From: a virus
Virus record (IMG/VR): IMGVR_UViG_3300045988_179268
Span: 128,001-192,000 of that record
DNA: 64,000 nt
Direction: 5' to 3' (one strand)
Part shown: piece by piece, positions 5,192 to 53,010 of the stretch
Numbering within the stretch: the first letter of the stretch is position 1
Layout: each line of letters starts with the position of its first letter
Notes under the pieces: generated by a model
The model's database searches: none
What the model was told of the DNA's origin: nothing
Seen by the model: the letters and a program-made list of their open reading frames with translations, nothing else
Position numbers and translations under genes: made by a program

Positions 5192-5400
5192 TTAGCATTA
5201 AAAAGTGCTAAAATGTTCCGCAAAAAGTTTGGAAAATCAGACCTGGAAATACGTCCCACAAGCGGCGTAAACTCTAGGCGCTTGATATATAACTACACAG
5301 ATAAATAAAAACCTCTCCAGCACCCCATACGCGGGCACATAGGGCAAGGAAGTCGAGCGCCAAGCCCTATAAAATCAGAGAGACTAACGGAAACAAAATG

Positions 5401-5440
5401 GTAAGCCCCTAACCTTTTATTATGAAGGTTAGGGGCTTAC
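5401..5440. terminator. bidirectional rho-independent terminator
   Basis: Perfect 16-bp stem gtaagcccctaacctt / aaggttaggggcttac with an 8-nt loop, T-runs on both sides. Marks the left border of the skewed domain. Confidence 0.85.
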
Positions 5441-5458
5441 CATTTTTAGTCCCAAAAA

Positions 5459-7102
5459 CTAAAACTCAAAAGCTGAAACGCCATCAAAAACAGACCCATC
5501 AGGGCGACACAAACGAATAGCGCGGATACGGTCATCACAACCATTCGCCAACGCCCACTCATTCACCTTACGCATCATACGGTCACCAGTACACAACCAC
5601 AATACCTGACCAAACACGCTCCTATCATCCTTATACTGCCCCAAAATAGTCTCCAAACGACCAGGCTTCTTACCGAAGCCACGCTCAATCTCAACAGCAA
5701 CACTGCGAGGCTCCCCATCCTCGCCACGCGGAACCATGCACACAATATCCGGCACATGGTACTTCGTCTCAGACGCACCACTCATTACCGCCCACATCCA
5801 CTCATTACCGCCGTAACACTCAGGAGAAACCCCAACACCACCAGCCGCACGCCAACTACGCAACACCTCACCACGGCGCGCAATCAAAACATCGCGCACG
5901 TCAAACCCAGCACGACCCCTAAACATTCCATGAATAGCGCCATTAATCACACGGTCAGGAATCACACTGAAACCACGAGCAACCTGCCCACCAACAACAC
6001 GACCACCAGATACTAAACCACCCAACCCCAAAACATCAACCGCACCATTCACCAACATCGCCCCCACATAATGAATAAGAGTACGATGCTGAAACTCGCT
6101 ATTACCCAGCGTCTTACGCGACACAGTAGCCCCACCAACACCAAACTCATCCAAACCCACACGTGTACCAACCCATACCGTATGACGCAAACCAGGAATG
6201 TCCACCGCCTCCAAACAGCCACGCCCCTGCAACCCCTTCAAATACTTCAACGCCGTAACCCTAGTAGAAACCCCCAACAACAACATCACAGCACGCACAT
6301 CAACCCAGCCAAACAGCCCAACAAACCCCATAATCTCAACCTCACGGCGCGAACCCATCAAACGCGGCGCAACACCACCATCCCCCTTGGAAGCCCTACG
6401 CACACGCTTCAAGCGCTCAGCCACAACATCCGGCGACTCACCAACCAACGGCGGAGACACAACATCAACCTCCCCAACACGAGACAGCCAATAAGAAGCC
6501 TGCTCCAACGCCAAACCATTAGAAACCTCAGTAGAACTCATACGCGAACCTCTCCCATCGTAATCAAAACGAAAACATGACAACTCACCAACACCAGCAC
6601 CTAGCCCCAAACCTCCCGGCGGCGCAACCAACCCACCTAACTCAACACCAACAGCATCACCTAAAGCCTCAACCCCCACACCAGACGCAGGAACAACAAA
6701 CCCATCCTGAATCGCCTCAAAATCAACACCATTCACGCCACCAAAAGACCACCTAGCGCGCGGAGTAACACCAAAAGAAAACCCGCCATGCACAAAAACA
6801 CCACCAACCGTAGAAACAACAGACCCATCCCAAACATACCCAGCACACTCCGCCGCAAAAGACCTAAACGCAACAGGAACCTGCGAAAAATCACGCACAC
6901 CCCGCGCACGCTCCAACACAGACCCATCCTCAACCGCAACACCAGACCCCAACACAAAACCATTCACCAAATGCCCAACACTGAACCCCGCATCACCCAA
7001 CTCACGAATAGACCCAGACCCAGAAAAAACATCCGGCGCTAAACCCTCAACAACCTTACGACCAACATTAACAACAGCCGAAGAAACAGACCCATCAACC
7101 AT
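5459..7102 (-). CDS. Replic_Relax-like (replication-relaxation family) protein with Gly/Val-rich N-terminal half
   Basis: wHTH-like segment (VSTRVTALKYLKGLQGRGCLE), then FQHRTL, then a PD-(D/E)xK-like core YHVPDIVCMV..VAVEIERGFGKKPGRLETILGQY. The start was moved to ATG 7102 (MVDGS), which has a GGAGG RBS 7 nt upstream. The track start at 7204 abuts the divergent gene's promoter region. Confidence 0.6.
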   Translation of the reverse strand: MVDGSVSSAVVNVGRKVVEGLAPDVFSGSGSIRELGDAGFSVGHLVNGFVLGSGVAVEDGSVLERARGVRDFSQVPVAFRSFAAECAGYVWDGSVVSTVGGVFVHGGFSFGVTPRARWSFGGVNGVDFEAIQDGFVVPASGVGVEALGDAVGVELGGLVAPPGGLGLGAGVGELSCFRFDYDGRGSRMSSTEVSNGLALEQASYWLSRVGEVDVVSPPLVGESPDVVAERLKRVRRASKGDGGVAPRLMGSRREVEIMGFVGLFGWVDVRAVMLLLGVSTRVTALKYLKGLQGRGCLEAVDIPGLRHTVWVGTRVGLDEFGVGGATVSRKTLGNSEFQHRTLIHYVGAMLVNGAVDVLGLGGLVSGGRVVGGQVARGFSVIPDRVINGAIHGMFRGRAGFDVRDVLIARRGEVLRSWRAAGGVGVSPECYGGNEWMWAVMSGASETKYHVPDIVCMVPRGEDGEPRSVAVEIERGFGKKPGRLETILGQYKDDRSVFGQVLWLCTGDRMMRKVNEWALANGCDDRIRAIRLCRPDGSVFDGVSAFEF

Positions 7103-7165
7103 CAGGAAACCTCCAAAACTTATAAAGAAACTCGCAATCCACATAGCCGAAAACCCACGGCAATG

Positions 7166-7176
7166 TGTGATACAAT
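7166..7176 (+). promoter_or_regulatory. SigA-type promoter, extended -10
   Basis: TGTGATACAAT, 41 nt upstream of ATG 7217. Confidence 0.6.
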
Positions 7177-7216
7177 CATACCAACCAAACCCCCACCACA
7201 TCAAAGGAAAATCCCC

Positions 7217-7429
7217 ATGAAGAAGCTGTACAACATCGCAGGACTCACCTTAATCGCCACGCTTACCCTCACCGGATGCGGCAATAGTGAGAACACCCAA
7301 AAACCAGATACCACCAAGACATCCCAATCCGAAACAGACAGCCCACGCCGCGTAGTGAAACCCTGCGGGGCAGACACCACCGGCGACATTGAAATGGGTC
7401 AGGGACTCTGCGACCACGAAGAAAGGTAA
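7217..7429 (+). CDS. small lipoprotein
   Basis: MKKLYNIAGLTLIATLTLTGC has a signal peptide and lipobox LTGC. AAGGA RBS. The track ORF begins 54 nt further upstream, inside the promoter. Confidence 0.6.
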   Translation: MKKLYNIAGLTLIATLTLTGCGNSENTQKPDTTKTSQSETDSPRRVVKPCGADTTGDIEMGQGLCDHEER

Positions 7430-7441
7430 CGAACAAACACT

Positions 7442-7720
7442 ATGGAATCATTCATCTACGGAGTTGTTAAAGTAACTCTCGAATACCACACGTACCCCAA
7501 TAACCCGGAAAAGAACCATATTGAAACCCGTGCATGGTACCTAGACGATAATAACAACAAAATTAAAACTGTCAGCACTAGTGACAACCCCCAAATGGAA
7601 GTAGTTCACGCCCTCTCAGAACACAACAAGCCAGTATACCAGAACGGTTTAGTGGGTGAGATGCTAGTCATTAATACAAATGACTACTCAATCTTCGAAA
7701 CCAAATACATTACCCACTAA
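7442..7720 (+). CDS. hypothetical protein
   Basis: 92-aa ORF of ordinary (non-skewed) composition, followed by a strong terminator. No clear RBS. Confidence 0.5.
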   Translation: MESFIYGVVKVTLEYHTYPNNPEKNHIETRAWYLDDNNNKIKTVSTSDNPQMEVVHALSEHNKPVYQNGLVGEMLVINTNDYSIFETKYITH

Positions 7721-7723
7721 CAA

Positions 7724-7772
7724 AAAAGTATCCCTTAAACTCTCTACAGAGAAGAGTTTAAGGGATACTTTT
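7724..7772. terminator. rho-independent terminator
   Basis: 20-bp stem aaaagtatcccttaaactct / agagtttaagggatactttt. The A-run and T-run are part of the stem. Confidence 0.85.
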
Positions 7773-7787
7773 TGCCCTATATTTTAA

Positions 7788-8588
7788 CTAACGCCAAGAC
7801 TCCGCGTGGTTCAAATCGCCTTCACAATACGCATAAACAACATCAAACATCTCAGGATACTGCTTAATAAACTCCGCCGGACTCATGCCAGCATACGCCA
7901 AACTAGGACCACCAATCAAAAGCGCCGTCTGAGTCGAACTAAAAGCATCGGAAGACCCATACACCCCCAAAAGCTTCACAATATCCTCCCTCACAGAACC
8001 GCCCTCAAACTGGAAACCAGGGTACCCCATGACACCCACCCACGCCGGATGCTTCGAAAAATCGGACAAAGGGAACCTAAGCACACGATTACTCTTAACC
8101 ATCTCCTCCAACTCACCCGAAGTCACACCCAAATACTCACAGACAGCACGCTCCGTATAGACACCCTGCAAATCTTCACCAAACACCGACTCCACGGCAG
8201 TAAGACCCCTTGAACCCTTGGCGACGGCAGTGTCAATCCCCTCACAAATGTAAGAAGTAAGCTTCTCCCCGTCACCCTCAGCGACATCAAGATACCCCGC
8301 CTCGCACAAGTCATCAACAGCCTTGCAAAGCATCTCCTTAACCCCCTCAACAGTTAGCGGGAACTTGCCTCTACCACCATAAGCAGAATAATAAGGCTGA
8401 GAACCCTCACGTTCACGAAGCATAAACAGCCCAACAGCCGCACAACAATGAAACAGCAAAACACGTTGAAGAGACTCAGTAATCACAACATCACCAGAGC
8501 CAACCTTCACATCAACATACTCACAAACCTCCTGCTTCACACCAGCAAGAACCTCAGCCTGCGCACTAGAAATAACACGAGAAGACAT
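7788..8588 (-). CDS. HTH plus DUF2384-like (Xre/MbcA/ParS-antitoxin-like C-terminal domain) protein, paralog family 2
   Basis: 266 aa. HTH-like YTERAVCEYLGVTSGELEEMV, then YPGFQFEGGSV, then MSPAEFIK. G/T-ending codons. Confidence 0.6.
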   Translation of the reverse strand: MSSRVISSAQAEVLAGVKQEVCEYVDVKVGSGDVVITESLQRVLLFHCCAAVGLFMLREREGSQPYYSAYGGRGKFPLTVEGVKEMLCKAVDDLCEAGYLDVAEGDGEKLTSYICEGIDTAVAKGSRGLTAVESVFGEDLQGVYTERAVCEYLGVTSGELEEMVKSNRVLRFPLSDFSKHPAWVGVMGYPGFQFEGGSVREDIVKLLGVYGSSDAFSSTQTALLIGGPSLAYAGMSPAEFIKQYPEMFDVVYAYCEGDLNHAESWR

Positions 8589-8629
8589 TAAGCAACCCCC
8601 ACAATAGAAAGAAAAATAAGTGCAAAACT

Positions 8630-8638
8630 ATGATACCA
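8630..8638 (-). promoter_or_regulatory. SigA-type promoter, extended -10
   Basis: TGGTATCAT on the minus strand, about 42 nt upstream of ATG 8588. Confidence 0.45.
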
Positions 8639-8663
8639 AACAAGGCAACACAAACACTAAAAA

Positions 8664-8700
8664 CTGGGAGGGGTGAAACAAAAAACTTCACCCCTCCCAG
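8664..8700 (-). terminator. rho-independent terminator
   Basis: 14-bp perfect stem ctgggaggggtgaa / ttcacccctcccag. T-run on the minus strand, downstream of the stop of 8714..9910. Confidence 0.85.
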
Positions 8701-8713
8701 CACCTACAAACGG

Positions 8714-9910
8714 CTACCCGCAATACCGCACAACCGCAAGAACCGCATCCACATACTCATCACCAAGACGCGCATACTCAACAGGCGCAACCAACCCAAA
8801 CCACGGCGACGGACTCTCCAAAAACTCAACAATACGGTCATCACCCCAACCCCAATCACGCAACTCACCCACAAGACGCACAGACCCAGAGAAAAACACC
8901 CAATCAATCACTAACCCATCATCCCCATAAACAGGCATCAGATGCACACCCTCAACAATATAATCGCCATCCCCATACTTCCCCGCCAGCAACTCGCCAG
9001 ACTCACACATACCCGCCACTACATCCTCAGGAACCCCCAACCCCTTAGCTACCTTGTGGGGTGGCAAACCAGCCCAACGGACACCATTAGAACGCTCATC
9101 AATACTAGCGAAACGGTGAACCAAAACACCCCACGGGACACGCAAAACCTCAGCCAAAGCCCCCAAATCAGCCAAAGAACCGCCACCCACAGACGGAACA
9201 ACACCTGCCACCGTCAAAGCAACAACATTCCCCGGCACTGGAACATTACCCACACCAGCACGCCCCCACGCACGCCCAACAACCTCAGCGCGCCGCCCCA
9301 ACGCACATTCACGCGCATCATCCAACACAAGAGCAACCAGAGCCTCATCACCCGACATCAACAACTCAGCCGCCGACAAAAACCCATACTCAAACGACGG
9401 CGTGAACAAAAAATCATCAGTAATATGAGGCTTCACACCAACAGCCCTGAACATCTTCACACACTCAAAAAACTCAGGGTTAAACCTCAAAGCGCCCTCA
9501 CCAGACACACTCCAAACTCCCTTACCGGCACCACCCCAAAACTGGGCACGAGTAAACAGCAAAGCACCCTCCCAGATGCCACCATTAAGGTAACCCTCCT
9601 CATACAGGCGCATCACCTCAGTGCCCGGCAACCCCTTATCCTCCAGCTCAGCCAAAGACAACCCGTCACCCCACTCACAATAAATACCCCACCCGGCAGA
9701 ACCGCCTCCAAACGCTTCCTCCAAACGCTCATACATGAACTCAGTAGAGACACCAAGAACACTAGAAACTAGCTCAAAATGCTCATTCTCCCAATCATAA
9801 GTAGACTTGGGAAGCCCTAAAGAACGAACCCTCAACACATCCTCAGCAGAGAAAAACTTGAAGCCAGGGTACTCATCAAAAACATTGTGCAACATGGAAG
9901 TAGCCTCCAA
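8714..9910 (-). CDS. DUF2384-like domain protein, paralog family 2 (larger member)
   Basis: 398 aa. C-terminal LMPVYGDDGLV..FLESPSPWFGLVAPVEYARLGD. GGAGG RBS 8 nt upstream of the ATG. Third codon positions are almost all G/T. Confidence 0.6.
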   Translation of the reverse strand: MEATSMLHNVFDEYPGFKFFSAEDVLRVRSLGLPKSTYDWENEHFELVSSVLGVSTEFMYERLEEAFGGGSAGWGIYCEWGDGLSLAELEDKGLPGTEVMRLYEEGYLNGGIWEGALLFTRAQFWGGAGKGVWSVSGEGALRFNPEFFECVKMFRAVGVKPHITDDFLFTPSFEYGFLSAAELLMSGDEALVALVLDDARECALGRRAEVVGRAWGRAGVGNVPVPGNVVALTVAGVVPSVGGGSLADLGALAEVLRVPWGVLVHRFASIDERSNGVRWAGLPPHKVAKGLGVPEDVVAGMCESGELLAGKYGDGDYIVEGVHLMPVYGDDGLVIDWVFFSGSVRLVGELRDWGWGDDRIVEFLESPSPWFGLVAPVEYARLGDEYVDAVLAVVRYCG

Positions 9911-10054
9911 AAGAAAAACAAAAATACTTGCACTCCCTATAATACCCCCCCCCTCAAAAAATCAAGAAAACACGCCGGTAAACATCTCTAGATACAATAC
10001 ATCCCACGCATAGAAGAGAATTAGAACACCCCTAAAGAGCATCCATCGCAAATA

Positions 10055-10065
10055 TGTGGTACAAT
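10055..10065 (+). promoter_or_regulatory. SigA-type promoter, extended -10
   Basis: TGTGGTACAAT, followed by leader hairpin ggttgagg/cctcaacc at 10078-10097. Confidence 0.6.
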
Positions 10066-10178
10066 CTAAACATGAAAGGTTGAGGTGAGCCTCAACCCAC
10101 CACCCCACCCTAACCATACAGGGAACCCAAAAAAGGGGCGAACACCCAATCATTAAACACAGAAAGAGAGCATCAACA

Positions 10179-11000
10179 ATGCGAAACATCACCCCCTTCC
10201 TCTACTGGGAAACCCTCAACACCAACGACGGTATCCTCCTCATCCCCACCGACAACACCACCAACGACCGCATGGCAATCTACACCATCGACCAGGTAAC
10301 CAACACCGACCACGCCACCGCACGCCTGCGCCACGCAAGCTTCAACGCACCCAAGACCATCACCCTCACCCGCACCAACGGACAGCTCACCACCAACGAC
10401 CTACCAGACCTCAAAGCCGTAAACATCGGCACCCGAGGCGACGCTATCGAACCCACCTACTACGCCGTCGAAAACGACGACAACATCACCATCTGGTACA
10501 GCACCGAACACTACAACGACATCGCCATCGCACACACCCTCAAAGCCAACGGAGAAACCCGCGTAATCTTCCACGAACCCGACGAATACGATACCCCCGA
10601 AGGCGGGTACAACATCTGGACAGTCCTCCAAGCAACCGAAAACTACGAAGACACCGACACCCTCCCCGAAACCTTCAACATCCCAGAAGCCAACACCGCA
10701 CCTCTCACCCCCGAAACCGCACTAGCACTCCACGACACCCTCAACCACCCCGAATACCACACCCTCAACGACAAAGAAACCCTCGAAGAAGAACTAATCT
10801 CCCTCTGGCAAAACATCTCAGACTACTACGCAATCCCTGGCGAAATGCACTGGGTATCCGACACTGAAATCCTCTGGCGCGCCAAAGACTACCTCACCAC
10901 CGTACACGACATCGCAATCAAAGAAGGACGCGCCAACCTAGCCAACCAAACCCTCCACCACATCAACACCATCACCACCCACACCAACTACGAAGAATAA
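10179..11000 (+). CDS. acidic hypothetical protein (Thr/Asn/His/Asp/Glu-rich)
   Basis: 273-aa ORF with an ATG start and its own promoter. Third codon positions are almost exclusively C or A, the mirror image of its minus-strand neighbours. Confidence 0.6.
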   Translation: MRNITPFLYWETLNTNDGILLIPTDNTTNDRMAIYTIDQVTNTDHATARLRHASFNAPKTITLTRTNGQLTTNDLPDLKAVNIGTRGDAIEPTYYAVENDDNITIWYSTEHYNDIAIAHTLKANGETRVIFHEPDEYDTPEGGYNIWTVLQATENYEDTDTLPETFNIPEANTAPLTPETALALHDTLNHPEYHTLNDKETLEEELISLWQNISDYYAIPGEMHWVSDTEILWRAKDYLTTVHDIAIKEGRANLANQTLHHINTITTHTNYEE

Positions 11001-11021
11001 CCCCCAAAACACCAAAAGATA

Positions 11022-11057
11022 CCCCTGGCAACCCGCACAAACACGGGAAACCAGGGG
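11022..11057. terminator. terminator hairpin between convergent genes
   Basis: cccctgg/ccagggg outer stem plus cccg/cggg inner stem. The minus-strand side is followed by tatcttttggtgtttt. Confidence 0.6.
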
Positions 11058-11083
11058 CATCTTCCTATACCACCAACAACACA

Positions 11084-13360
11084 CTAACCACCCAAAACCG
11101 ACACAACCTCACCCACCGAAACACCCAACCCCAACACCGGCGAACCAACCGGCACATCAACCCAACCACCAGAAACACCCCAACCAGAACGACCAAACAA
11201 CCCAGCAGACCCACCACCACCAGAAACAACCCCCACCGGCGAACCAAACCCCTCACTACCAGCCACAAACCCCAAACCCAACCCACCATCCAAACCACCA
11301 CGCCCAGAAACAACCGAACCAACAACACCAGACAAAACACGCCCACCAACAGACCCCAAAACACCATCCAAACCACCACGCAACAACCCCCACAAAACAC
11401 CAGAACCCAAACCCGCAACCCTACCAAACACCGGACAAACCCCCGACAACCCCAAACCACCACCAACACCAGACACCACATCAACCAACCCCACCACAGA
11501 CGAAACACCCCTCAAACCACCAACCAAAGAACCCACCGGCGACCCACCAGGCAAAACACCACCACCAAACACACCCGACAAACCCCCAACACCCCACAAA
11601 CCAGACACACCATCAACCACACCACCACAAGAACCAGCAACCCCCACCGACAAAACACCACCACCAAACACCGACCCAAACCCCACAGGAACAAGCCCCG
11701 CCCCAAACACAAGAGAACGCCACAACCACCCATCAACATCAACCACAGCCCCAACACCCCCATCAACAAAACCACCATCAACATCAAAACCCTCAACAGC
11801 ACCAACAACACCAGACACACCCGGCACAAAACCACCAGCCCCAACACCCCAAACACCAACCCTACGCCCAAAACCAGCCCCAACACCACCACCACCCAAA
11901 ACACCCAAACCAGCAGACGACAAACCCCAAGAACAAGACAACCCGCCAACACCAGAAACACCCCCACCAACCGGCAACCCAAAAACCCCAACAACACCCG
12001 ACAAATCAACACCAAACCCCGAAACAGAACCCAAACCAGCCAACGCATCCAACCCAGACACCCCCGACACCAACCACGGCACAGCAACCCCAACACCACC
12101 AGAAACCCCACCAACATCCGCCGCACCAGCACCCACACCACCAAACCCAGCAGAGCCAACCCCACCAAAATCAACCCCACCGACAAAATCACCAACGGGC
12201 AAACCAATCGGCAAACCGCACACCCCAGACCCCATAAACAACCCCACTGGCGAACAACCCAACATGCCCAATAACCCATCAACCCCACCAGCCACAGAAC
12301 CACCAAACCCAGACGAAGAACCAAACCTCACGCCAGAACCACCCACAACACCAAACAAACCCGAACCTCTAGAAGCCCCCACAGACCTATTAAAACTAGT
12401 AGAAGGTAAAACAGTACCGCCAATAGACAAAACACCCTCAGAAGCCCCCTCAAGCCCCGTAGAAACCCCCTCTATAGTAACCCCATCAGTAGCAGGCTCA
12501 GAAAACTCCTCGCCACCACCCCAAAAACCCTCAACAAAACCGCCACCAACACCAACCCCCACAAAACCCCCAACACCATCCACAACACCAGACGAGCCCC
12601 ACCCCACCGACACACCAACCCCCACAGGCTCAACAAAACCGGCACCACGAAGCGAACCACCCCAAACACCAACCCGCCCATCAACCCCCAACAACCCAAC
12701 AACACCAGAATCAACGCCCCACAACTCAACACCAACCCCACCCGGAACAAACACCCCACACACACCACCAGACAACCCATCCCCCAACAACCCAGAACCC
12801 AAACCACCAACACCAACACCAGACTCCAAAACACCACGCCCAACAACCACAACAACCACACTCCAAAAAAGAAAAAACAAAAAAATAGTACACCACAAAC
12901 ATAGCCACAAAAACACCCCCACCCAGACAACCCCCAAAAAACAAAACCCCCAACACCCACCCAACAAACAAAAACCCCACAAAAACACCCCCACAACAAA
13001 AAAAACCAAACCAACCACCCCAAGCAAACCCCAAAAAACAACGCACCACAAACCCAAAACCACACAAAGAACTTGGGCAACACTAAAAATAAACACCAAA
13101 AACACGAATAACCAAGACACAAGACACAAGAGAAAAGGAAAAAGCAACAAGACATAACAGACACAGACACGCAAAGAGGAAAGCAATAACACTACAAAGA
13201 AAGAAGTACCCAGGATAAACAGATACACAAAATAAACACCAATACACGACAGACATAGAGGATAAGCGCAGACACATACACCATAAACAGAAAGAAGCAC
13301 AGGCACACAATACGCAAGCACAGAAAAACACGAAGGCAACAACAGATACAAGAGACACAC
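11084..13360 (-). CDS. low-complexity Gly/Val/Ser-rich ORF (coding strand and true start uncertain)
   Basis: 758-aa ORF ending 26 nt before a terminator that works best on the minus strand. The rare bases show 3-nt periodicity. All six frames are nearly stop-free here, and a Pro/Thr-rich + frame (open 11088-13157, first ATG at 12264) shares the same wobble position. Confidence 0.3.
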   Translation of the reverse strand: MCLLYLLLPSCFSVLAYCVPVLLSVYGVCVCAYPLCLSCIGVYFVYLFILGTSFFVVLLLSSLRVCVCYVLLLFPFLLCLVSWLFVFLVFIFSVAQVLCVVLGLWCVVFWGLLGVVGLVFFVVGVFLWGFCLLGGCWGFCFLGVVWVGVFLWLCLWCTIFLFFLFWSVVVVVVGRGVLESGVGVGGLGSGLLGDGLSGGVCGVFVPGGVGVELWGVDSGVVGLLGVDGRVGVWGGSLRGAGFVEPVGVGVSVGWGSSGVVDGVGGFVGVGVGGGFVEGFWGGGEEFSEPATDGVTIEGVSTGLEGASEGVLSIGGTVLPSTSFNRSVGASRGSGLFGVVGGSGVRFGSSSGFGGSVAGGVDGLLGMLGCSPVGLFMGSGVCGLPIGLPVGDFVGGVDFGGVGSAGFGGVGAGAADVGGVSGGVGVAVPWLVSGVSGLDALAGLGSVSGFGVDLSGVVGVFGLPVGGGVSGVGGLSCSWGLSSAGLGVLGGGGVGAGFGRRVGVWGVGAGGFVPGVSGVVGAVEGFDVDGGFVDGGVGAVVDVDGWLWRSLVFGAGLVPVGFGSVFGGGVLSVGVAGSCGGVVDGVSGLWGVGGLSGVFGGGVLPGGSPVGSLVGGLRGVSSVVGLVDVVSGVGGGLGLSGVCPVFGRVAGLGSGVLWGLLRGGLDGVLGSVGGRVLSGVVGSVVSGRGGLDGGLGLGFVAGSEGFGSPVGVVSGGGGSAGLFGRSGWGVSGGWVDVPVGSPVLGLGVSVGEVVSVLGG

Positions 13361-13709
13361 AAAAGAAGATAAGAGGCAACACAGTACGTATACACAAGAA
13401 AGGCAAAAGAAGCATAAAGAGAGGACATAAGAGCGGAAGGCACATATATGCTAGAAACACATAGGGATACACGCAGACTAAGTAATACACGACAGGTATA
13501 GAGAGGGTAGGTAGATAGGGTAAGCACGCATAGGATGGCACACGGTATATACGGAGGGGCTAGAAACGGTTAGTGGGTGTGAGTGGTGGTAGGTTGGGCA
13601 GGGTGGAAGGTGGTGTGGTGGTTGGGTGTGGTGTGGGTCATATTGCTCACGCGGTTGGTTGCTCTTTCCCTTTTTTCTTTCTCCTTTTCTTGTGTTTTTG
13701 GTAGCGTGC

Positions 13710-13772
13710 TGTGGCGCGGGGTATTTTTGGGTGTTTCGGTATGTGGGGGAATGTATCATTTGCCCTAGTCAG
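13710..13772 (+). repeat. 63-bp perfect direct repeat, copy 1
   Basis: tgtggcgcggggtatttttgggtgtttcggtatgtgggggaatgtatcatttgccctagtcag, identical to 13955-14017. Confidence 0.95.
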
Positions 13773-13811
13773 GACGTTTTTGCGTTTTGGGTGACAGGGC
13801 TGTAGTAGTGG

Positions 13812-13843
13812 CTTAAAATCAACCTGTAGAAGTTGATTTTAAG
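13812..13843. repeat. AT-rich hairpin 1 (cttaaaatcaac / gttgattttaag)
   Basis: 12-bp perfect stem, 8-nt loop. Shares the AAAATCAAC..GTTGATTTT core with hairpin 2. Confidence 0.9.
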
Positions 13844-13954
13844 GTGTTTTATATAGATTTTTGAGGTGAATTGGGTTGTCTGCGTCTTTGGCGCAGGGGT
13901 TTTGGTGGTAATTATGACGTTTTTTAGGTTTTTTGGGTGGGTTTTTGTGTGCAT

Positions 13955-14017
13955 TGTGGCGCGGGGTATTTTTGGGTGTTTCGGTATGTGGGGGAATGTA
14001 TCATTTGCCCTAGTCAG
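13955..14017 (+). repeat. 63-bp perfect direct repeat, copy 2
   Basis: Identical to 13710-13772, offset by 245 bp. Confidence 0.95.
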
Positions 14018-14058
14018 CGCGTTATGCACTTTGGTACAGATTCTCATTTTCAGGGGTT

Positions 14059-14086
14059 AAAAATCAACCTCCAGGGGTTGATTTTT
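14059..14086. repeat. AT-rich hairpin 2 (aaaaatcaacc / ggttgattttt)
   Basis: 11-bp perfect stem, 6-nt loop. Sits in the same position relative to DR copy 2 as hairpin 1 does to copy 1. Confidence 0.9.
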
Positions 14087-14220
14087 GGTAAGCGCATGGT
14101 GCGAGCGCGATTTTAAGCCTTGGTGCCGGGGTGTCGAAGGATGGTTTTTATTGCTTTGCGGGTGCCAGGTGTGGTAGGTTGCGCCATTGTGTATCACAAG
14201 CTTGCGTGTCGTCTATTTTC

Positions 14221-14231
14221 TGTGGTATAGT
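14221..14231 (+). promoter_or_regulatory. SigA-type promoter, extended -10
   Basis: TGTGGTATAGT with TTGCGT about 17 nt upstream. Leader hairpin at 14249-14269. Confidence 0.6.
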
Positions 14232-14307
14232 TATAGGGTAATCATATGGCGGGTAATCGTTACCTGCCGTTATTCTTCATCTTGTTCCTATGGAGGGATT
14301 GTTAGTT

Positions 14308-14661
14308 ATGGCTTTTAGTGTTGAGATTCAGGTTAGGGCTAAGAACACTTATGCCCGGTTGGTGTGTTCTTTGTCTGAGATTGGTGCGCTGTTCTCTACG
14401 GGCAGTTTTGTGAAGGCGGCGGTTTTGAATTTGGCGATGTTTGATGCGAGCGCTTCGTCTGCTAATCCTAGTGTGTGGGATGGGGTGGATGAGAAAGAGC
14501 GTCGCTTGCAGTGGTCGTACAATGAGTTGCGTAACCTTGCGTCTTCTTTTGCCCCCGATTGGGCTGAGGCTGTTGCTAAGGATGATGAGGCGCTGGCTTT
14601 GGAGATTTTGAACGCTGTGGATGATGTGGTTTCTTATGCGCGTGAGCGTGTATTTGGTTAG
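14308..14661 (+). CDS. hypothetical protein
   Basis: 117 aa counted from ATG 14308, which has GGAGGG 10 nt upstream. The track start is 14290. G/T-ending codons. Confidence 0.55.
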   Translation: MAFSVEIQVRAKNTYARLVCSLSEIGALFSTGSFVKAAVLNLAMFDASASSANPSVWDGVDEKERRLQWSYNELRNLASSFAPDWAEAVAKDDEALALEILNAVDDVVSYARERVFG

Positions 14662-14675
14662 CACTGTCTTGTGTT

Positions 14676-14714
14676 AGCGAAGGGGCGGGTTCCTGTTTGG
14701 GTTCCCGCCTCGCT
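14676..14714 (+). terminator. rho-independent terminator
   Basis: agcga..ggcggg / cccgcc..tcgct stem, followed by a T-rich tract. Confidence 0.6.
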
Positions 14715-14830
14715 TCTCTACTTTTGGTTTTCTGCTTGGGTGAGTGTGTGCTTGCTTGGGTGGCATGTTTTGTTTTTGTGGGTGGGTGTTCTGCCTGCTT
14801 CATTGAGTTTATTGAAAGGGAGTTTTGTTG

Positions 14831-15916
14831 ATGTCTGTTTTTCCTGGTGATGTTGTGTCTACTGTTGTGGGTGTTCTGCATGTGCAGACTATTGTTATGG
14901 AGCGTTCGCGTGAGGATGTGTCTTTCGCGGTGTCTGGTGTTGATGGTGGGGGTGTGGTTCACTCGAACATTCCTATTGGTGAGGGTGTGGTTCCGTTGGC
15001 TGTTGATGTGCCTGAGTCTGAGGCGTTGGTGTGGTTTGACCGTGAGCGTCGCTTGAAGCGTTTGGGGGATGCTGTGTTTAGTCCTGGTGATGGTGTTAGG
15101 GCTTTGGGTAAGCTGATGGAGGGGCAGGGTGTTGAATTGTCGTTGTCTGACTGTGAACCTGCTGAGGCTGTTGTTAGGTGGCTGGGTGAGGTTGAGGCTT
15201 CTCTGGTTGGGGCGAGGGCGTGGGTTACAGGGAAGCGTATGGAGTGCCTGCGTGCGTTTGAGGATTTTCATGCGGGCTGGTTGAAGTATCATAGTCGCCC
15301 TTGGGGTGAGCCGTCTTTGGGTGAGCGTTGTGATGTGCGACCTGGTATTGGGTTTAGGTCTGGTGGTGTGTATCGGTTCCGACGTGAGGGTGCGCCTATT
15401 GAGGATGGGTATGAGTATTTCAAGGTTGTTCGTACTGTCGGTCAGCCTGAGATTGTTATTTATGGTGCGTCTACTGAGGTAAGTGAGTGTCTGGGTTTTA
15501 TTCATGGTGTTAAGTATGGTCCTAACTATGATTATCTTCTCCTGCTGGCTGAGGTTGGCGGTAAGAAGATTTCGATGCTGGCGGATACTGTGAAGCTTCT
15601 GCCTATTGGTTCTTTTGAGGATATTGAGTCTTACCTTGAGTTGAGTGAGTATGAGGACGTTTCTCTTCCTGGCGCATTGCGCAACATTTTCCTTGACCTG
15701 TTTGCCGCTGGTGACGGTAAGCCTAAGTGCCTGCCCTCCCGTGAAGAGCTTAACGGTGGCTACTACGGTTGGGGTGATGACTACGGTAAGCGTTGTGGTG
15801 AGTTGATGGAGGCAAGTGCTGACATTCTGTTCGATATTGAGAAGAGTATCGGGTATGTCCGGTGGTTGCGTGAACAGCTGGTAGGCTTCTATCGTGAGCT
15901 AGGGTTCACTATCTAG
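14831..15916 (+). CDS. paralog family 1 protein (PGDVV beta-domain plus helical modules)
   Basis: 361 aa from ATG 14831 (AAGGGAG RBS). C-terminal GDGKPKCLPS..FDIEKSIGYVRWLREQL aligns with 28347..29120. The ARAWVTGKRMEC motif is shared with two paralogs. Confidence 0.7.
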   Translation: MSVFPGDVVSTVVGVLHVQTIVMERSREDVSFAVSGVDGGGVVHSNIPIGEGVVPLAVDVPESEALVWFDRERRLKRLGDAVFSPGDGVRALGKLMEGQGVELSLSDCEPAEAVVRWLGEVEASLVGARAWVTGKRMECLRAFEDFHAGWLKYHSRPWGEPSLGERCDVRPGIGFRSGGVYRFRREGAPIEDGYEYFKVVRTVGQPEIVIYGASTEVSECLGFIHGVKYGPNYDYLLLLAEVGGKKISMLADTVKLLPIGSFEDIESYLELSEYEDVSLPGALRNIFLDLFAAGDGKPKCLPSREELNGGYYGWGDDYGKRCGELMEASADILFDIEKSIGYVRWLREQLVGFYRELGFTI

Positions 15917-16161
15917 GGGGGTCGCCGCCTAGGGAGGGGTGGCGTATGGGAGCCGCTGAATCCTCCGGCTACTAGGTTTGGGTGACCGCTCTTGTAGTTG
16001 ATGGCGAGCGCTCTCTTGGGCGGCTATGTCTTAGTGGTGGTTGTTTGCTGGTTGCTTCGCTAAGTGTGGTGATGGGTGTGAGTGCTTGAAGGGTGCTCAT
16101 GCCCATCATTTGTTTCTGCTGGGGTGAGCCACACACTATAGCTTGCGCCCCCGTCTGAATC

Positions 16162-16172
16162 TGTGGTATAAT
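16162..16172 (+). promoter_or_regulatory. SigA-type promoter, extended -10
   Basis: AATCTGTGGTATAAT, 70 nt upstream of ATG 16242. Confidence 0.65.
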
Positions 16173-16241
16173 TAAATTGTTCAATCGGGGGTGTTTCCCG
16201 TAAAGCCAATGACCAATACGCATGTTTGAGGAGTCACACAA

Positions 16242-16640
16242 ATGTCCTGCGCTGTTAAGATGATGAAGCCCTACACTTACACCACCCTTCCCTTTACCGC
16301 TACCAGCACTGCCCACATGGGCGATGTTGAGTCATGGGTTTCTTCTAAGATGACTCTTGAGTTCGTATCCTGGGATTCAGGTGAGGAGGCTCACGTTACT
16401 TATGGGGTGCAGGCGACTAACCCGGCTAAAGAGCCTGGCGATGACGGCTGGTTGATTGGTCGTGTGACTATGAGTGTTGATGTTGAGGGTGAGGTTGCTC
16501 TGAGTGATGCTCTTATGCGTCGTATGGTGGAAGACTTTAAGGTTGTGATGCGTAATCGTGTAGCGCAGGGTCAGGCTCTTGTGGACTTTGAGGGTGGGGT
16601 TCCGGTCTTTAAGCAGACTGTGACGTTCGCTACCGTGTAG
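16242..16640 (+). CDS. hypothetical protein
   Basis: 132-aa ORF with GAGGAG RBS 8 nt upstream. Confidence 0.6.
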   Translation: MSCAVKMMKPYTYTTLPFTATSTAHMGDVESWVSSKMTLEFVSWDSGEEAHVTYGVQATNPAKEPGDDGWLIGRVTMSVDVEGEVALSDALMRRMVEDFKVVMRNRVAQGQALVDFEGGVPVFKQTVTFATV

Positions 16641-51702: not shown

Positions 51703-51713
51703 TGTGGTACAAT
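51703..51713 (+). promoter_or_regulatory. SigA-type promoter, extended -10 (drives tnpB)
   Basis: TGTGGTACAAT with TTGATG 16 nt upstream. The track start ATG 51712 is inside the -10. Confidence 0.65.
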
Positions 51714-51738
51714 GAGCATAAATGAAAGGAGGAACCTG

Positions 51739-53010
51739 ATGCAACTGACGGAGAGGCACCTTGTTAAGCCGAACCATGAGCTTTATGCGACCCTGGATGA
51801 CTTAACGTTCAAGGCTAAGAACCTTTACAATCATGGGCTATATCTGTACCGTCAGTCGTATTTTGAACACAAAAAGAGCCCTGATGCGCCGGTCTTAACC
51901 TGGGTGGATATTGATAAGAGCCTGCGTAAACAGGGGCACGATGATATTCGTGCTTTGCCGTCTAAAGTCGCTAATGCTGTGCTAAAAAACTTAGGCGAAA
52001 ACATCACGTCGTTTTGGAAATTAGTGCGCCTAAAAAATAGTGGTAAGCTGGCACAAAAGCCTAAGCTCCCTCATTATCTTCATAAGACTGATGGGCGTTA
52101 CGCTGTGTCTTTTAATTATCAGACTTTTGGCAATAAACGTGGCGCTAACGGGGAGCTATTCTTATGCCCAAAGGGTATTAATCTCCCCATTCCTACTAAG
52201 ATTGCTAATCCTAAGCAGGTTCGTATTGTTCCCAACCTCAATAATTTTATTATTGAGGTTATTTATGACGCGGAAGAAAGTGCGCCTAAAAGCACGTCTA
52301 AATATGCTGGTATTGATTTAGGAGTAGATAATTTTGCTACCATCACATTCTCCACCCAAAACCAACCCCTCATTATTAAGGGTCTTGAATTAAAGTCCAT
52401 CAATCAGGGCTATAACCGTCTTATCGCCAAGGCACAGTCTTTGCTTCCAGGTTCCCAGAAGACAAGTCAGTCCATCCACCGTCTTTGGTCACGTCGCTCG
52501 TGGATTCTTCGCACGAAAATCCATCAGATGACAGCGTTCCTAGCTACTCTTTTTGACGAGATGCAGATTGAAAAAGTCTTCATTGGGAAAAATACTGGCT
52601 GGAAGCAGAACCTGCCTTTCGGCAAGAAGGTTAAACAGCGATTCGCATTTCTACCTTATGAAACTTTTATTGAGCAATTGCAGTATAAATGCCAATTGCG
52701 AGGAATTACTGTCATTACCCAGGAAGAATCCTACACATCTAAGGCGAGCTTCCTAGATAATGATGATATTCCTGTTTACGGTGAGACAGAGAATCCAAAG
52801 TTTTCTGGACGCAGGATTAAGCGAGGACTTTACAAAACCAGTGATGGGCGACTAATCAATGCTGACGTTAATGGGTCATATAACATTATGCGAAAAGGAC
52901 TGATGAACAATAATCAGTCCTTACGTGTGGACAACCCATTAATTCATCCCCTTGTCGTCAAGGGAATTGGGCAGGAATCTAACGATAAGTTGGTTCAACT
53001 ATACATGTAA
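51739..53010 (+). CDS. tnpB: TnpB (IS200/IS605-family OrfB, RuvC-like RNA-guided nuclease family)
   Basis: 423 aa from ATG 51739 (AGGAGG RBS). RuvC motifs GIDLGVDNFATI, QEESYTSKASFLD and NADVNGSYNIMRKG, plus GKNTGWKQN. No CxxC zinc-finger pairs. No adjacent tnpA. Confidence 0.8.
   Translation: MQLTERHLVKPNHELYATLDDLTFKAKNLYNHGLYLYRQSYFEHKKSPDAPVLTWVDIDKSLRKQGHDDIRALPSKVANAVLKNLGENITSFWKLVRLKNSGKLAQKPKLPHYLHKTDGRYAVSFNYQTFGNKRGANGELFLCPKGINLPIPTKIANPKQVRIVPNLNNFIIEVIYDAEESAPKSTSKYAGIDLGVDNFATITFSTQNQPLIIKGLELKSINQGYNRLIAKAQSLLPGSQKTSQSIHRLWSRRSWILRTKIHQMTAFLATLFDEMQIEKVFIGKNTGWKQNLPFGKKVKQRFAFLPYETFIEQLQYKCQLRGITVITQEESYTSKASFLDNDDIPVYGETENPKFSGRRIKRGLYKTSDGRLINADVNGSYNIMRKGLMNNNQSLRVDNPLIHPLVVKGIGQESNDKLVQLYM

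Follow-up and report, generated by a model that had tools for sequence, protein, structure and literature searches.

Iteron-type plasmid origins, the class to which P1, F, pSC101 and RK2 belong, are one kind of system with which a repeat-bearing origin can be compared. A second kind comprises transcription-primed origins, i.e., the two tandem promoters at the primary origin of phage T7, ColE1 RNA II, and the light-strand promoter of mitochondria, accompanied by conserved sequence blocks. In mitochondria, the keto-rich (G+T) strand bias is attributed to deamination of single-stranded DNA.

Transfer origins and large oral elements provide further points of reference. PF13814 (Replic_Relax) is the domain of the MOBC relaxases (PMC5357655, Table 1), and TraX of pAD1, which has an N-terminal winged helix, binds five direct repeats located 70-120 bp from the nic site (PMC12857230, section 17). 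Inocles are giant oral extrachromosomal elements with a GC content of 24-32% and a marker protein, InoC (PF13814, ~454 aa) (PMC12340149).

Here, we analyzed a 64-kb stretch of DNA from a record in IMG/VR (the whole stretch is hereafter termed the window), in which two copies of a repeat-plus-hairpin module lie to the right of a switch in strand polarity. The locus resembles several known systems, each in part. Like iteron origins, it has short direct repeats at a strand-polarity switch beside a lower-GC stretch and, in a distant relative (L064), a repeat array near a candidate initiator gene; unlike them, its 63-bp repeats are not iterons, the window carries just two boxes, and DnaA boxes and a recognized Rep family are missing. 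With transcription-primed origins it shares the layout only: one or two tandem promoter-like boxes point from the switch into sequence that is G-rich on the non-template strand, a hairpin and a T-run stand at the end, and the flanking strands are keto-rich (G+T). As at the MOBC oriT of pAD1, a candidate protein for which both a winged helix and a PD-(D/E)XK-like domain are predicted is encoded beside T4SS-type genes (PMC12857230, PMC5357655), and short direct repeats have inverted repeats and conserved stretches at a distance of tens to hundreds of bp; yet PF13814 membership is hinted at (E ~0.02 in 2 of 13 family members), and by our reasoning a sign change of the skew would be unexpected at an oriT. 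Intrinsic terminators and small-RNA genes likewise lie between genes and consist of a -10-like box that is followed, after ~75-80 nt, by a stem-loop with a T-run, but differ from our locus in its A/T-rich stem, invariant arms, lack of covariation, T.T mismatch in most copies, competing upstream pairing and lack of an Rfam family match. Finally, the element as a whole is similar to Inocles in its oral habitat, size, circularity, mostly unknown genes and possibly a Replic_Relax-like conserved protein, and dissimilar in its ~49% GC; no open reading frame of the window reaches the PF13814/InoC threshold, and the two are unrelated at the levels searched (PMC12340149).

Results

The modules belong to an undescribed family of plasmid-like elements of the human mouth that carry T4SS-type genes. 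The element is circular, measures ~290-375 kb and has a GC content of ~49%; members of the family occur in many independent human oral metagenome assemblies, and two of them are present in IMG/VR as putative viruses. A limited literature search yielded no description of the family, a nucleotide search of 13.0-15.0 kb against phage and plasmid collections gave no match, and scanning reference genomes with the TnpB protein in search of the host found no close relative. The T4SS-type genes of the window encode AAA_10 (VirB4-like), T2SSE and AAA_31 (ParA-like) proteins, supplemented by a weak TcpE match in relatives, and the T2SSE ATPase shares no more than 32% identity with any entry of the plasmid and phage collections. 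Identity with the Inocles was considered and rejected, because the GC content is ~49% here as opposed to 24-32%.

The strand-polarity switch is surrounded by the following features:

13150..13555, no strand assigned: A-rich, T-poor stretch left of the switch (A 49%, T 10%), with no convincing gene
13450..13458, plus strand: GCTAGAAAC box 1 at the switch, with direct RGCTAGA copies in relatives
13559..13567, plus strand: GCTAGAAAC box 2 at the switch, likewise with direct RGCTAGA copies in relatives
13624..13664, plus strand: 41-nt block GGGTGTGGTGTGGGTCATATTGCTCACGCGGTTGGTTGCTC, the best conserved sequence between the switch and module 1 in the pivot alignment of clades A and B
13665..13691, plus strand: polypyrimidine tract TTTCCCTTTTTTCTTTCTCCTTTTCTT, from the pivot alignment

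The sign of the GC skew is reversed near 13,350 and that of the AT skew near 13,580, the modules lying 150-550 bp to the right. The plus strand is 88% A+C over 11,000-13,100, and the A-rich, T-poor stretch was found with the composition that had been claimed for it. Over 13,000-13,400 the GC content drops to 0.40, compared with 0.49 for the window, and the sequence is A-rich on one strand, unlike a classical 13-mer-type unwinding element. At third codon positions, plus-strand G+T amounts to 5-13% in genes within ~8 kb left of the switch, whichever strand the gene is on, whereas the first four genes on the right-hand side reach 70-89%; the switch thus follows the DNA strand and not gene orientation. 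The replication skew known from bacterial genomes is far weaker than this asymmetry. Within roughly 3-8 kb of the switch the asymmetry fades, leaving a much weaker skew of the same sign beyond, so that the skew alone is no proof of a replichore boundary. The switch and its origin polarity were kept in every lineage examined, including relatives whose 547-aa protein (see below) is just 32-67% identical. When substitutions between close relatives were polarized, the counts were balanced, at compositional equilibrium, with transversions inflated by misalignment of low-complexity sequence.

Every clade with the module-2 anchor carries two to four direct RGCTAGA copies at irregular spacing, located 400-615 nt upstream of that anchor in two-module elements; the window has two, which by their own count are not enriched there. 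The 41-nt block begins 57 bp past the last GCTAGA box (57-105 bp downstream). In L064, 11 copies of a 9-bp repeat, TGTTATCTG, stand at the switch, several of them ~10-11 bp apart, and the homologue of the 547-aa protein is encoded 1.1 kb downstream of the array; the sequence of the repeat at the switch differs between L064 and the other lineages. Iteron-type origins are recognized by an array of at least three short (~17-22 bp), helically phased direct repeats; the only true array was found in L064, and the GCTAGA boxes and the TGTTATCTG array are better iteron candidates than the 63-bp repeats. In line with what had been noted before, there is no cluster of DnaA boxes: the 64 kb hold 22 one-mismatch matches to TTATCCACA where 15 are expected, none of them between 9.3 and 14.6 kb.

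The two modules and the sequence between and behind them are organized as follows:

13710..13772, plus strand: 63-bp repeat copy 1, the 5' part of module 1, identical to 13955-14017
13754..13759, plus strand: -10-like hexamer TATCAT of module 1, its A2 and T6 conserved over 39 copies
13759..13778, plus strand: module-1 copy of the invariant box, TTTGCCCTAGTCAGGACGTT, the consensus of the family being TTTGCCCTWGTCAGNGCGTT
13812..13843, plus strand: hairpin 1, an inverted repeat of CTTAAAATCAAC, an 8-nt loop and GTTGATTTTAAG, with a 12-bp stem
13844..13954, plus strand: T/G-rich spacer between the modules (T 48%)
13955..14017, plus strand: 63-bp repeat copy 2, the 5' part of module 2
13999..14004, plus strand: -10-like hexamer TATCAT of module 2, with the same A2/T6 conservation over 39 copies
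14004..14023, plus strand: invariant box TTTGCCCTAGTCAGCGCGTT of module 2, from the module alignment
14025..14038, plus strand: small stem of module 2 only, TGCAC-TTTG-GTACA, with a mismatch in the window copy
14059..14086, plus strand: hairpin 2, an inverted repeat AAAAATCAACC-TCCAGG-GGTTGATTTTT, with an 11-bp stem and a 6-nt loop
14101..14109, plus strand: GCGAGCGCG motif downstream of module 2, invariant in seven aligned elements of clades A and B

The repeats, the hairpins and the core that the hairpins share (AAAATCAAC/GTTGATTTT) lie exactly, to the base, where the original prediction had placed them, and the tract between the modules is T-rich as described. The two perfect 63-bp copies are 245 bp apart; their similarity stretches to 69 nt at 97% identity, while the full 245-nt units are just 55% identical to each other. 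In module 1, the 5' part runs from a G/T-rich leader through GGTGTTTCGGTATGTGGGGGA and the -10-like hexamer to the start of the invariant box, and hairpin 1 begins 50 nt past GTCAG, a spacing common to nearly all copies. Folded as single-stranded DNA, the hairpins reach -10.3 and -11.4 kcal/mol (z ~ -6; none of 200 shuffles was equally stable), and the box and hairpin patterns do not recur within the 64-kb window, where ~0 to 0.2 matches are expected by chance. L002 and L004, both close relatives, have the loop of hairpin 2 (TCCAGG) in exactly inverted form, CCTGGA, and the spacer differs from that of close relatives by an 11-nt indel. The small stem of module 2, which in relatives has GTGCA and a TTTG, TTCG or TGGG loop, does not fold in the window copy.

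We compared 39 distinct module copies from related human oral metagenome contigs of ~286-375 kb. All 39 contain one conserved unit, a TAnnnT box followed by the invariant TTTGCCCTWGTCAGNGCGTT, and all but two have the inverted repeat ATCAACC-N6-GGTTGWT and its T-run 50 nt after the box. The copies align without gaps, and in 37 of the 39 the segment that opens with GTATGTGG and closes 12 nt beyond the inverted repeat has a length of exactly 111 nt; the linker of 50 nt is fixed in length and free in sequence, and the flanks, unlike these rigid modules, are rich in indels. No run of invariant columns in the alignment is longer than the TTTGCCCTWGTCAGNGCGTT box, which is retained in the sister lineages L065 and L066. 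Two modules, spaced ~245-256 bp apart, are found in every clade that has the 117-aa gene described below, whereas L065 and the short contig L044 have a single unit and L066 has one full and one partial unit. Across the metagenomes, a scan for the box returned this locus only, besides one unrelated sequence occurring in two contigs. Module 2 shows a mean column identity of 79% over all copies, compared with ~65% between clades for the flanking 20 kb, and the modules persist in lineages whose marker protein is 61-67% identical. Taken together, the module and the switch boxes are the most conserved non-coding region in the stretches examined. The original prediction had proposed looking for the 63-mer in related replicons and had named its absence or variability in syntenic relatives as evidence against itself; the repeats are kept there.

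Within the -10-like hexamer, only A2 and T6 (alignment columns A17 and T21) are invariant over the 39 copies, the inner bases varying among seven forms: TATCAT, TAATGT, TAATAT, TATTAT, TAGCCT, CAATGT and GAGCCT. The invariant GTCAGNGCGTT follows 8 nt after TAnnnT. No -35 hexamer accompanies the site, the TGTG extension carried by other promoter-like sites of the element is missing where the spacing would call for it, and a promoter consensus scan does not report it. The repeat had also been likened to a decayed copy of the element's promoter. The resemblance of TGTGGGGGAAT to the TGTGnTAnnnT promoters is real, but the claim calls for revision: GGGGGA is near-invariant across relatives, and the TAnnnT that is conserved position by position is a different hexamer, 3 nt downstream of that resemblance (13754-13759 and 13999-14004). 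The most conserved stretch straddles the predicted start site, a placement that suits a protein-binding site at least as well as it does a promoter. Three other readings of the modules were dropped: a minus-strand promoter in the repeat (TGATACATT), which is not conserved in clade B; a SigH/ECF-type GGAAT-N-GTT site, whose spacing is wrong; and small open reading frames across the modules, which are interrupted by an 11-nt indel and by an early stop in L013.

The inverted repeat is conserved as a sequence. Both of its arms are invariant over the 39 copies and its 6-nt loop is free, no pair of positions shows a compensatory change and there is no covariation. One stem pair is a T.T mismatch in 26 of the 39 copies, the perfect 11-12-bp stems being confined to copies from the window's own clade, and the stem holds just three G-C pairs. 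The T-run is kept everywhere, whereas the A-run upstream is lost in L065 and L066. In most lineages, clade B among them, TCAACC forms a more stable pairing with an upstream GGGGTTGA than with the downstream arm, so that a simple terminator would not form in the RNA of those lineages; GGGGTTGA, TCAACC and GGTTGW make up three half-sites, of which the two in like orientation are 21 bp apart. Immediately behind the inverted repeat, conservation is lacking and there is no nic-like motif. A search of Rfam gave no match at the gathering score or at E values up to 10, and there is no tRNA. The inverted repeat is probably not a generic terminator. Searches in a purine/pyrimidine alphabet for hidden, transition-mutated module copies found nothing above shuffled controls, and complementarity between the single-stranded part of the putative RNA and the rest of the window did not exceed chance.

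Linkers of the module-1 type and of the module-2 type are each kept across clades, from which it follows that the duplication is older than the split of the two main clades. Boxes are 0.87-1.00 identical within one element, compared with 0.76-0.80 for orthologous copies between clades, in agreement with the gene conversion that had been put forward as one explanation of the perfect repeat; we attribute the 63-bp identity to conversion between the two paralogous promoter-proximal boxes. L003 carries recombinant haplotypes.

Two neighboring genes bear on the function of the locus:

14221..14231, plus strand: promoter-like site TGTGGTATAGT of the 117-aa gene, of the element-wide TGTGnTAnnnT type
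14308..14661, plus strand: 117-aa gene, the first to the right, found only in this element family
5459..7102, minus strand: gene of the 547-aa protein, family-wide and always beside secretion-ATPase (T4SS-type) genes

The 117-aa protein is predicted to be an all-helical bundle with no significant PDB match and no recognizable DNA-binding domain, and a ribbon-helix-helix DNA binder, the impression given by its sequence, was dropped on account of this model. No such gene was seen beside the module of L065. The original prediction had reported no recognizable Rep gene nearby. While no Rep family was indeed detected by Pfam or PHROG, the 547-aa protein has a predicted winged helix, with MarR-like PDB matches, and a predicted C-terminal PD..ExE..K alpha/beta (PD-(D/E)XK-like) domain, in a model of low overall quality (mean pLDDT 48). 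Of 13 family members, two match PF13814 Replic_Relax at E ~0.02, far below the Pfam threshold, and the window protein has no Pfam match. We consider the 547-aa protein a candidate initiator or MOBC-like relaxase. As the Replic_Relax family includes MOBC relaxases, a transfer origin is as live a possibility as a replication origin. In the window, 6.4 kb separate this gene from the site, compared with 1.1 kb in L064; the ParA-like gene is 11 kb from the modules.

Discussion

We tentatively read each module as a short rightward transcription or control unit flanking an origin of replication and/or transfer, with a confidence somewhat short of even. Transcription, the role of the inverted repeat and the tie to replication or transfer we infer from sequence, the origin itself being suggested by position and conservation. 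The locus holds a conserved non-coding unit of ~245-256 bp in tandem duplicate, and in this scheme RNA polymerase would start at ~13767/8 and ~14012/3. The inverted repeat 50 nt downstream would be recognized by its sequence, be it as the binding site of a protein or as an attenuator-like hairpin of RNA or single-stranded DNA, and the ~75-80-nt transcript, or its synthesis, may serve the adjacent origin as primer, activator or control RNA. The GCTAGA boxes (13450 and 13559) would then be the true short direct repeats of that origin.

In the reading suggested by the original prediction, the 63-bp repeats would be iterons bound by the replication initiator, and the hairpins and T-rich tract would form the unwinding and priming part of a plasmid origin (oriV). 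Of this layout, the switch with origin polarity stood, being conserved in all lineages examined; the repeats are also conserved and kept identical within elements, and the inverted repeats would lie on the lagging-strand template of a rightward fork. The 63-mers, however, did not hold up as iterons: there are two copies only, ~245-256 bp apart, each the 5' part of a composite unit that is single in L065 and L044, with no helical phasing and no array. The part in which they are identical is built like a promoter and not like a short binding motif in several copies; iteron-type direct repeats do occur, yet directly at the switch, and a DnaA-box cluster is lacking. Nor is the hairpin part supported: perfect stems occur in the window's clade only, the T.T mismatch is present in 26 of 39 copies, and covariation is absent. 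We regard this oriV as very improbable. A locus that forms part of a MOBC-type oriT is unlikely, too. There, the 547-aa protein would be a restriction-endonuclease-like relaxase binding the GCTAGA boxes at the switch, and the nick would fall tens to hundreds of bp away, in the 13624-13664 block or in the box or inverted repeat of a module. Such a role would suit a gene adjoining T4SS-type genes (AAA_10/VirB4-like, T2SSE and ParA-like ATPase, with a weak TcpE in relatives), the MarR-like PDB matches of the winged helix in its model, the PF13814 matches at E ~0.02 in 2 of 13 family members, and a conserved 41-nt block that begins 57 bp after the last GCTAGA box. It is at odds with Replic_Relax matches far below the Pfam threshold, a mean pLDDT of 48, the 6.4 kb between gene and site in the window's lineage, and the want of conserved sequence or a nic-like motif right after the inverted repeat; moreover, single-strand transfer should, by our reasoning, cause no sign change of the skew, unless processing of the nick exposes opposite strands on its two sides.

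The invariant arms and box, the free spacer and the rigid lengths would also be expected of sites on double-stranded DNA, where a dimeric or multimeric protein would occupy the box and the three GGTTGA/TCAACC half-sites, with no functional transcript, and would repress the rightward operon starting at 14221 or make the locus a centromere. The two like-oriented half-sites 21 bp apart and the placement of the most conserved bases across the putative start site agree with such an operator or partition site. Nevertheless, we deem it distinctly unlikely: the T-run is conserved and the symmetrical A-run is not, an asymmetry unexpected for a palindromic operator, the TAnnnT conservation pattern is a hallmark of promoters, the ParA-like gene is 11 kb away, and the 117-aa neighbor lacks a DNA-binding fold and was not seen beside the L065 module. 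Lastly, the succession of promoter, hairpin and T-run might be an ordinary leftover, i.e., two decayed promoters and weak terminators insulating the 117-aa gene, with no specific function. This is hardly credible in view of the 79% identity of module 2 against ~65% in the flanking 20 kb, the rigid length and invariant arms, and the persistence of the modules in lineages whose marker protein is 61-67% identical.

A bolder version of the transcription-unit reading, which we consider decidedly unlikely, is that the locus is a new type of origin, at which DNA on both sides stays single-stranded for long, either because initiation by a D-loop or R-loop aborts, as in the control region of mitochondria, or because a relaxase nick persists. 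The modules would then be promoters of priming or activating transcripts, whose 3' end, or the end of the primer, would be set by the inverted repeat. If so, the single-stranded DNA would account for a deamination-type gradient, with ~70-95% G+T at synonymous sites on a strand determined by the side of the switch, fading within ~3-8 kb, and the amino-acid make-up of every protein encoded there would be distorted. Should the skew reflect time spent single-stranded, it would constitute a natural record of the initiation mechanism. By virtue of their conservation, the module and the switch boxes are the best handle on the replication or transfer of this oral element, and a specific marker by which it can be sought in other data.

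A duplicated module with a promoter-like box and an inverted repeat

Just right of the strand-composition switch lie two copies of a non-coding module (module 1 left, module 2 right), each comprising a box with a -10-like hexamer, a 50-nt linker, and an inverted repeat followed by a T-run. The original prediction described a perfect 63-bp direct repeat and two hairpins, with a T-rich tract between the modules and an A-rich, T-poor stretch to their left, all of which we confirmed:

13150-13555, stretch of 49% A and 10% T
13710-13772, 63-bp repeat, copy 1
13812-13843, hairpin 1, 12-bp stem, -10.3 kcal/mol
13955-14017, 63-bp repeat, copy 2
14059-14086, hairpin 2, 11-bp stem, -11.4 kcal/mol

T makes up 48% of the spacer between the modules. 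The repeat lengthens to 69 nt at 97% identity, and the whole 245-nt units are just 55% identical. When the hairpins were folded as single-stranded DNA, 0 of 200 shuffles folded equally well. The box and hairpin patterns did not occur elsewhere within the 64-kb window, and neither a tRNA scan nor an Rfam search gave a match at the locus.

We then aligned 39 distinct copies of the module from related metagenome contigs. Of these, 37 were exactly 111 nt long, measured from GTATGTGG through 12 nt beyond the inverted repeat, with indel-rich flanks. Within the hexamer, A2 and T6 were invariant and the other bases varied (TATCAT, TAATGT, TAATAT, TATTAT, TAGCCT, CAATGT, GAGCCT). Also invariant were TTTGCCCTWGTCAGNGCGTT, a G-run, ATCAACC and, beyond a free 6-nt loop, GGTTG and TTTT. 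In every lineage and for either module type, 50 nt separated GTCAG from ATCAACC, save for two exceptions, each one base off. The hairpin itself showed no compensatory changes; one pair was a T.T mismatch in 26 of the 39 copies, and perfect stems were confined to copies of the window's clade. The T-run was always retained; the A-run was missing in the sister lineages L065 and L066. Upstream, GGGGTTGA is likewise complementary to TCAACC, making three half-sites, and in clade B (one of the two main clades) RNA pairing between GGGGTTGA and TCAACC competes with the terminator-like pairing. The proposal that the 63-mers are iterons was rejected. The module is most economically explained as a promoter-like box with, at a fixed distance, an inverted repeat that would be recognised in a sequence-specific manner.

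The upstream half of the box, GGTGTTTTGGTATGTGGGGGAGTGAATATTT, was also found once in an unrelated sequence shared by two contigs from other metagenomes (L057 at about 12158, minus strand; L061 at about 4058, plus strand), with neither the hairpin nor family genes nearby; this match may be due to chance.

In two pairs of otherwise near-identical alleles, the 6-nt loop of hairpin 2 was exactly reverse-complemented (TCCAGG/CCTGGA and TCCAGA/TCTGGA), at the following sites:

14059-14086, window
9752-9780, contig L002
module-2 hairpin, contigs L045 and L048

Such a flip/flop of the loop is a signature of template switching at a long perfect inverted repeat, and suggests that the 11-bp one here has repeatedly undergone either this or the processing of a cruciform.

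Age and concerted evolution of the duplication

Module-1-type and module-2-type linkers are each kept across clades, indicating that the duplication is older than the clade split. Boxes within one element are nonetheless more alike (identity 0.87-1.00) than boxes between clades (0.76-0.80), and contig L003 includes recombinant haplotypes, which together indicate concerted evolution, in line with the gene conversion suggested originally. L066 carries a full unit plus a partial one. A single unit is present in L065 and in L044; the latter case could reflect assembly collapse.

The strand-composition switch

The GC skew reverses sign near 13,350, the AT skew near 13,580. This skew profile was seen again in every clade, in L065 and L066, and in the distant relative L064. 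Extreme asymmetry spans 5400-16600 in the window (strongest at 11000-13100), 5000-15200 in L064 and 1-11500 in L065, and is also present in L002-L013 and L066; strand asymmetry is conserved in all lineages. Among genes on the left side and no more than about 8 kb from the switch, synonymous (third codon) positions were 5-13% G+T on the plus strand (87-95% A+C), in minus- and plus-strand genes alike, so the bias tracks the DNA strand and not the coding strand; on the right side, the four genes nearest the switch had 70-89% G+T at these positions. Protein composition is skewed accordingly, with one strand's genes G/V/L-rich and the opposite strand's single well-sampled gene T/N-rich. The very strong skew declines within roughly 3-8 kb, near the ends of co-directional gene blocks, and hence is not in itself proof of a replichore boundary.

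The plus strand of 11,000-13,100 is 88% A+C. In this DNA lies a Gly/Val/Leu/Ser-rich ORF of 745 aa (11084-13321, minus strand), whose coding status is uncertain given long open stretches in all three minus-strand frames. Across relatives the called ORF ranges from 566 to 745 aa, so the tract is hypervariable and of low complexity; it is also where several contigs from short-read assemblies terminate.

Short sequences were also found at the switch itself:

13450 and 13559, GCTAGA boxes
13624-13664, 41-nt block right of these boxes, followed by a polypyrimidine tract (pivot alignment)

Direct copies of RGCTAGA (2-4) occurred in every clade with the module-2 anchor; the L066 pivot yielded none. 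By count alone the boxes are not enriched within the window, and the weight we give them comes from their conservation across clades. In L064, 11 direct copies of TGTTATCTG (≤1 mismatch), several about 10-11 bp apart, lie exactly at the skew switch (8709-8884); a 931-aa homologue of the 547-aa protein described below is encoded 1.1 kb downstream of them. A scan of the window found no DnaA-box cluster.

The element and its neighbouring genes

Exact matches to the window's proteins came from contigs of human oral metagenomes, 286-375 kb in length. One of 319,425 bp terminates exactly on base 1 of repeat copy 1, and in another, of 319,371 bp, the locus is internal, which together imply a circular genome that assemblers are prone to break there. 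Many short-read contigs likewise break off within the modules or the A+C-only tract (the ends of L012, L014, L015, L016, L006 and L004, and position 1 of L005), so assemblies of the element are likely broken or collapsed here. IMG/VR holds two members of the family, and searches of phage and plasmid collections returned nothing similar. We ruled out an Inocle, as the element's GC content is about 49% vs 24-32% in Inocles (PMC12340149).

Profile searches left nearly all window ORFs without a family assignment. The exceptions, a VirB4-like AAA_10, a ParA-like AAA_31 and T2SSE ATPases, together with a weak TcpE match in relatives, point to a putative conjugation system of Gram-positive type. A promoter-like motif, TGTGnTAnnnT, recurs element-wide (e.g., at 14221, 16162, 25231, 31062, 44161 and 51703); it is a TRTG-extended -10, a promoter type typical of Gram-positive hosts. 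An IS605-family TnpB (51712-53010, plus strand; OrfB_IS605 and a Cas12f-like TNB domain) had no close relative among reference genomes and hence gave no host clue.

The 547-aa protein (5459-7102, minus strand), a candidate initiator or relaxase, is conserved superfamily-wide, always beside the T2SSE, AAA_31 and AAA_10 genes. Its structure model is of low overall confidence (mean pLDDT 48), with residues 250-311 at 75-88; residues about 250-311 form a predicted winged helix with MarR-like PDB matches, beyond which lies a predicted C-terminal alpha/beta domain with PD..ExE..K. Two of 13 homologues weakly matched PF13814 (Replic_Relax; E about 0.02), a family that takes in MOBC relaxases (PMC5357655). 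For the 117-aa protein, encoded by the first gene right of the modules (14308-14661, plus strand), a structure model and PDB comparison gave no functional clue. The 5' leader of this gene holds a conserved stem-loop, ATGGCGGGTAATCGTTACCTGCCGT (14246-14270), between a TGTGGTATAGT promoter-like site and a GGAGGG ribosome-binding site, which could be an attenuator or regulatory hairpin.

Possible function of the locus

The putative origin may serve replication, transfer or both. The skew sign change and the strand-based nature of the skew favour replication; the candidate 547-aa protein and the layout of direct and inverted repeats would suit a MOBC-type oriT equally well. In pAD1, TraX recognises a set of five direct repeats, and its nic site is 70-120 bp away (PMC12857230). 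As for the module, its promoter-like box and fixed-distance inverted repeat suggest a short unit of transcription or control, directed rightward, which would flank a DNA-processing origin.
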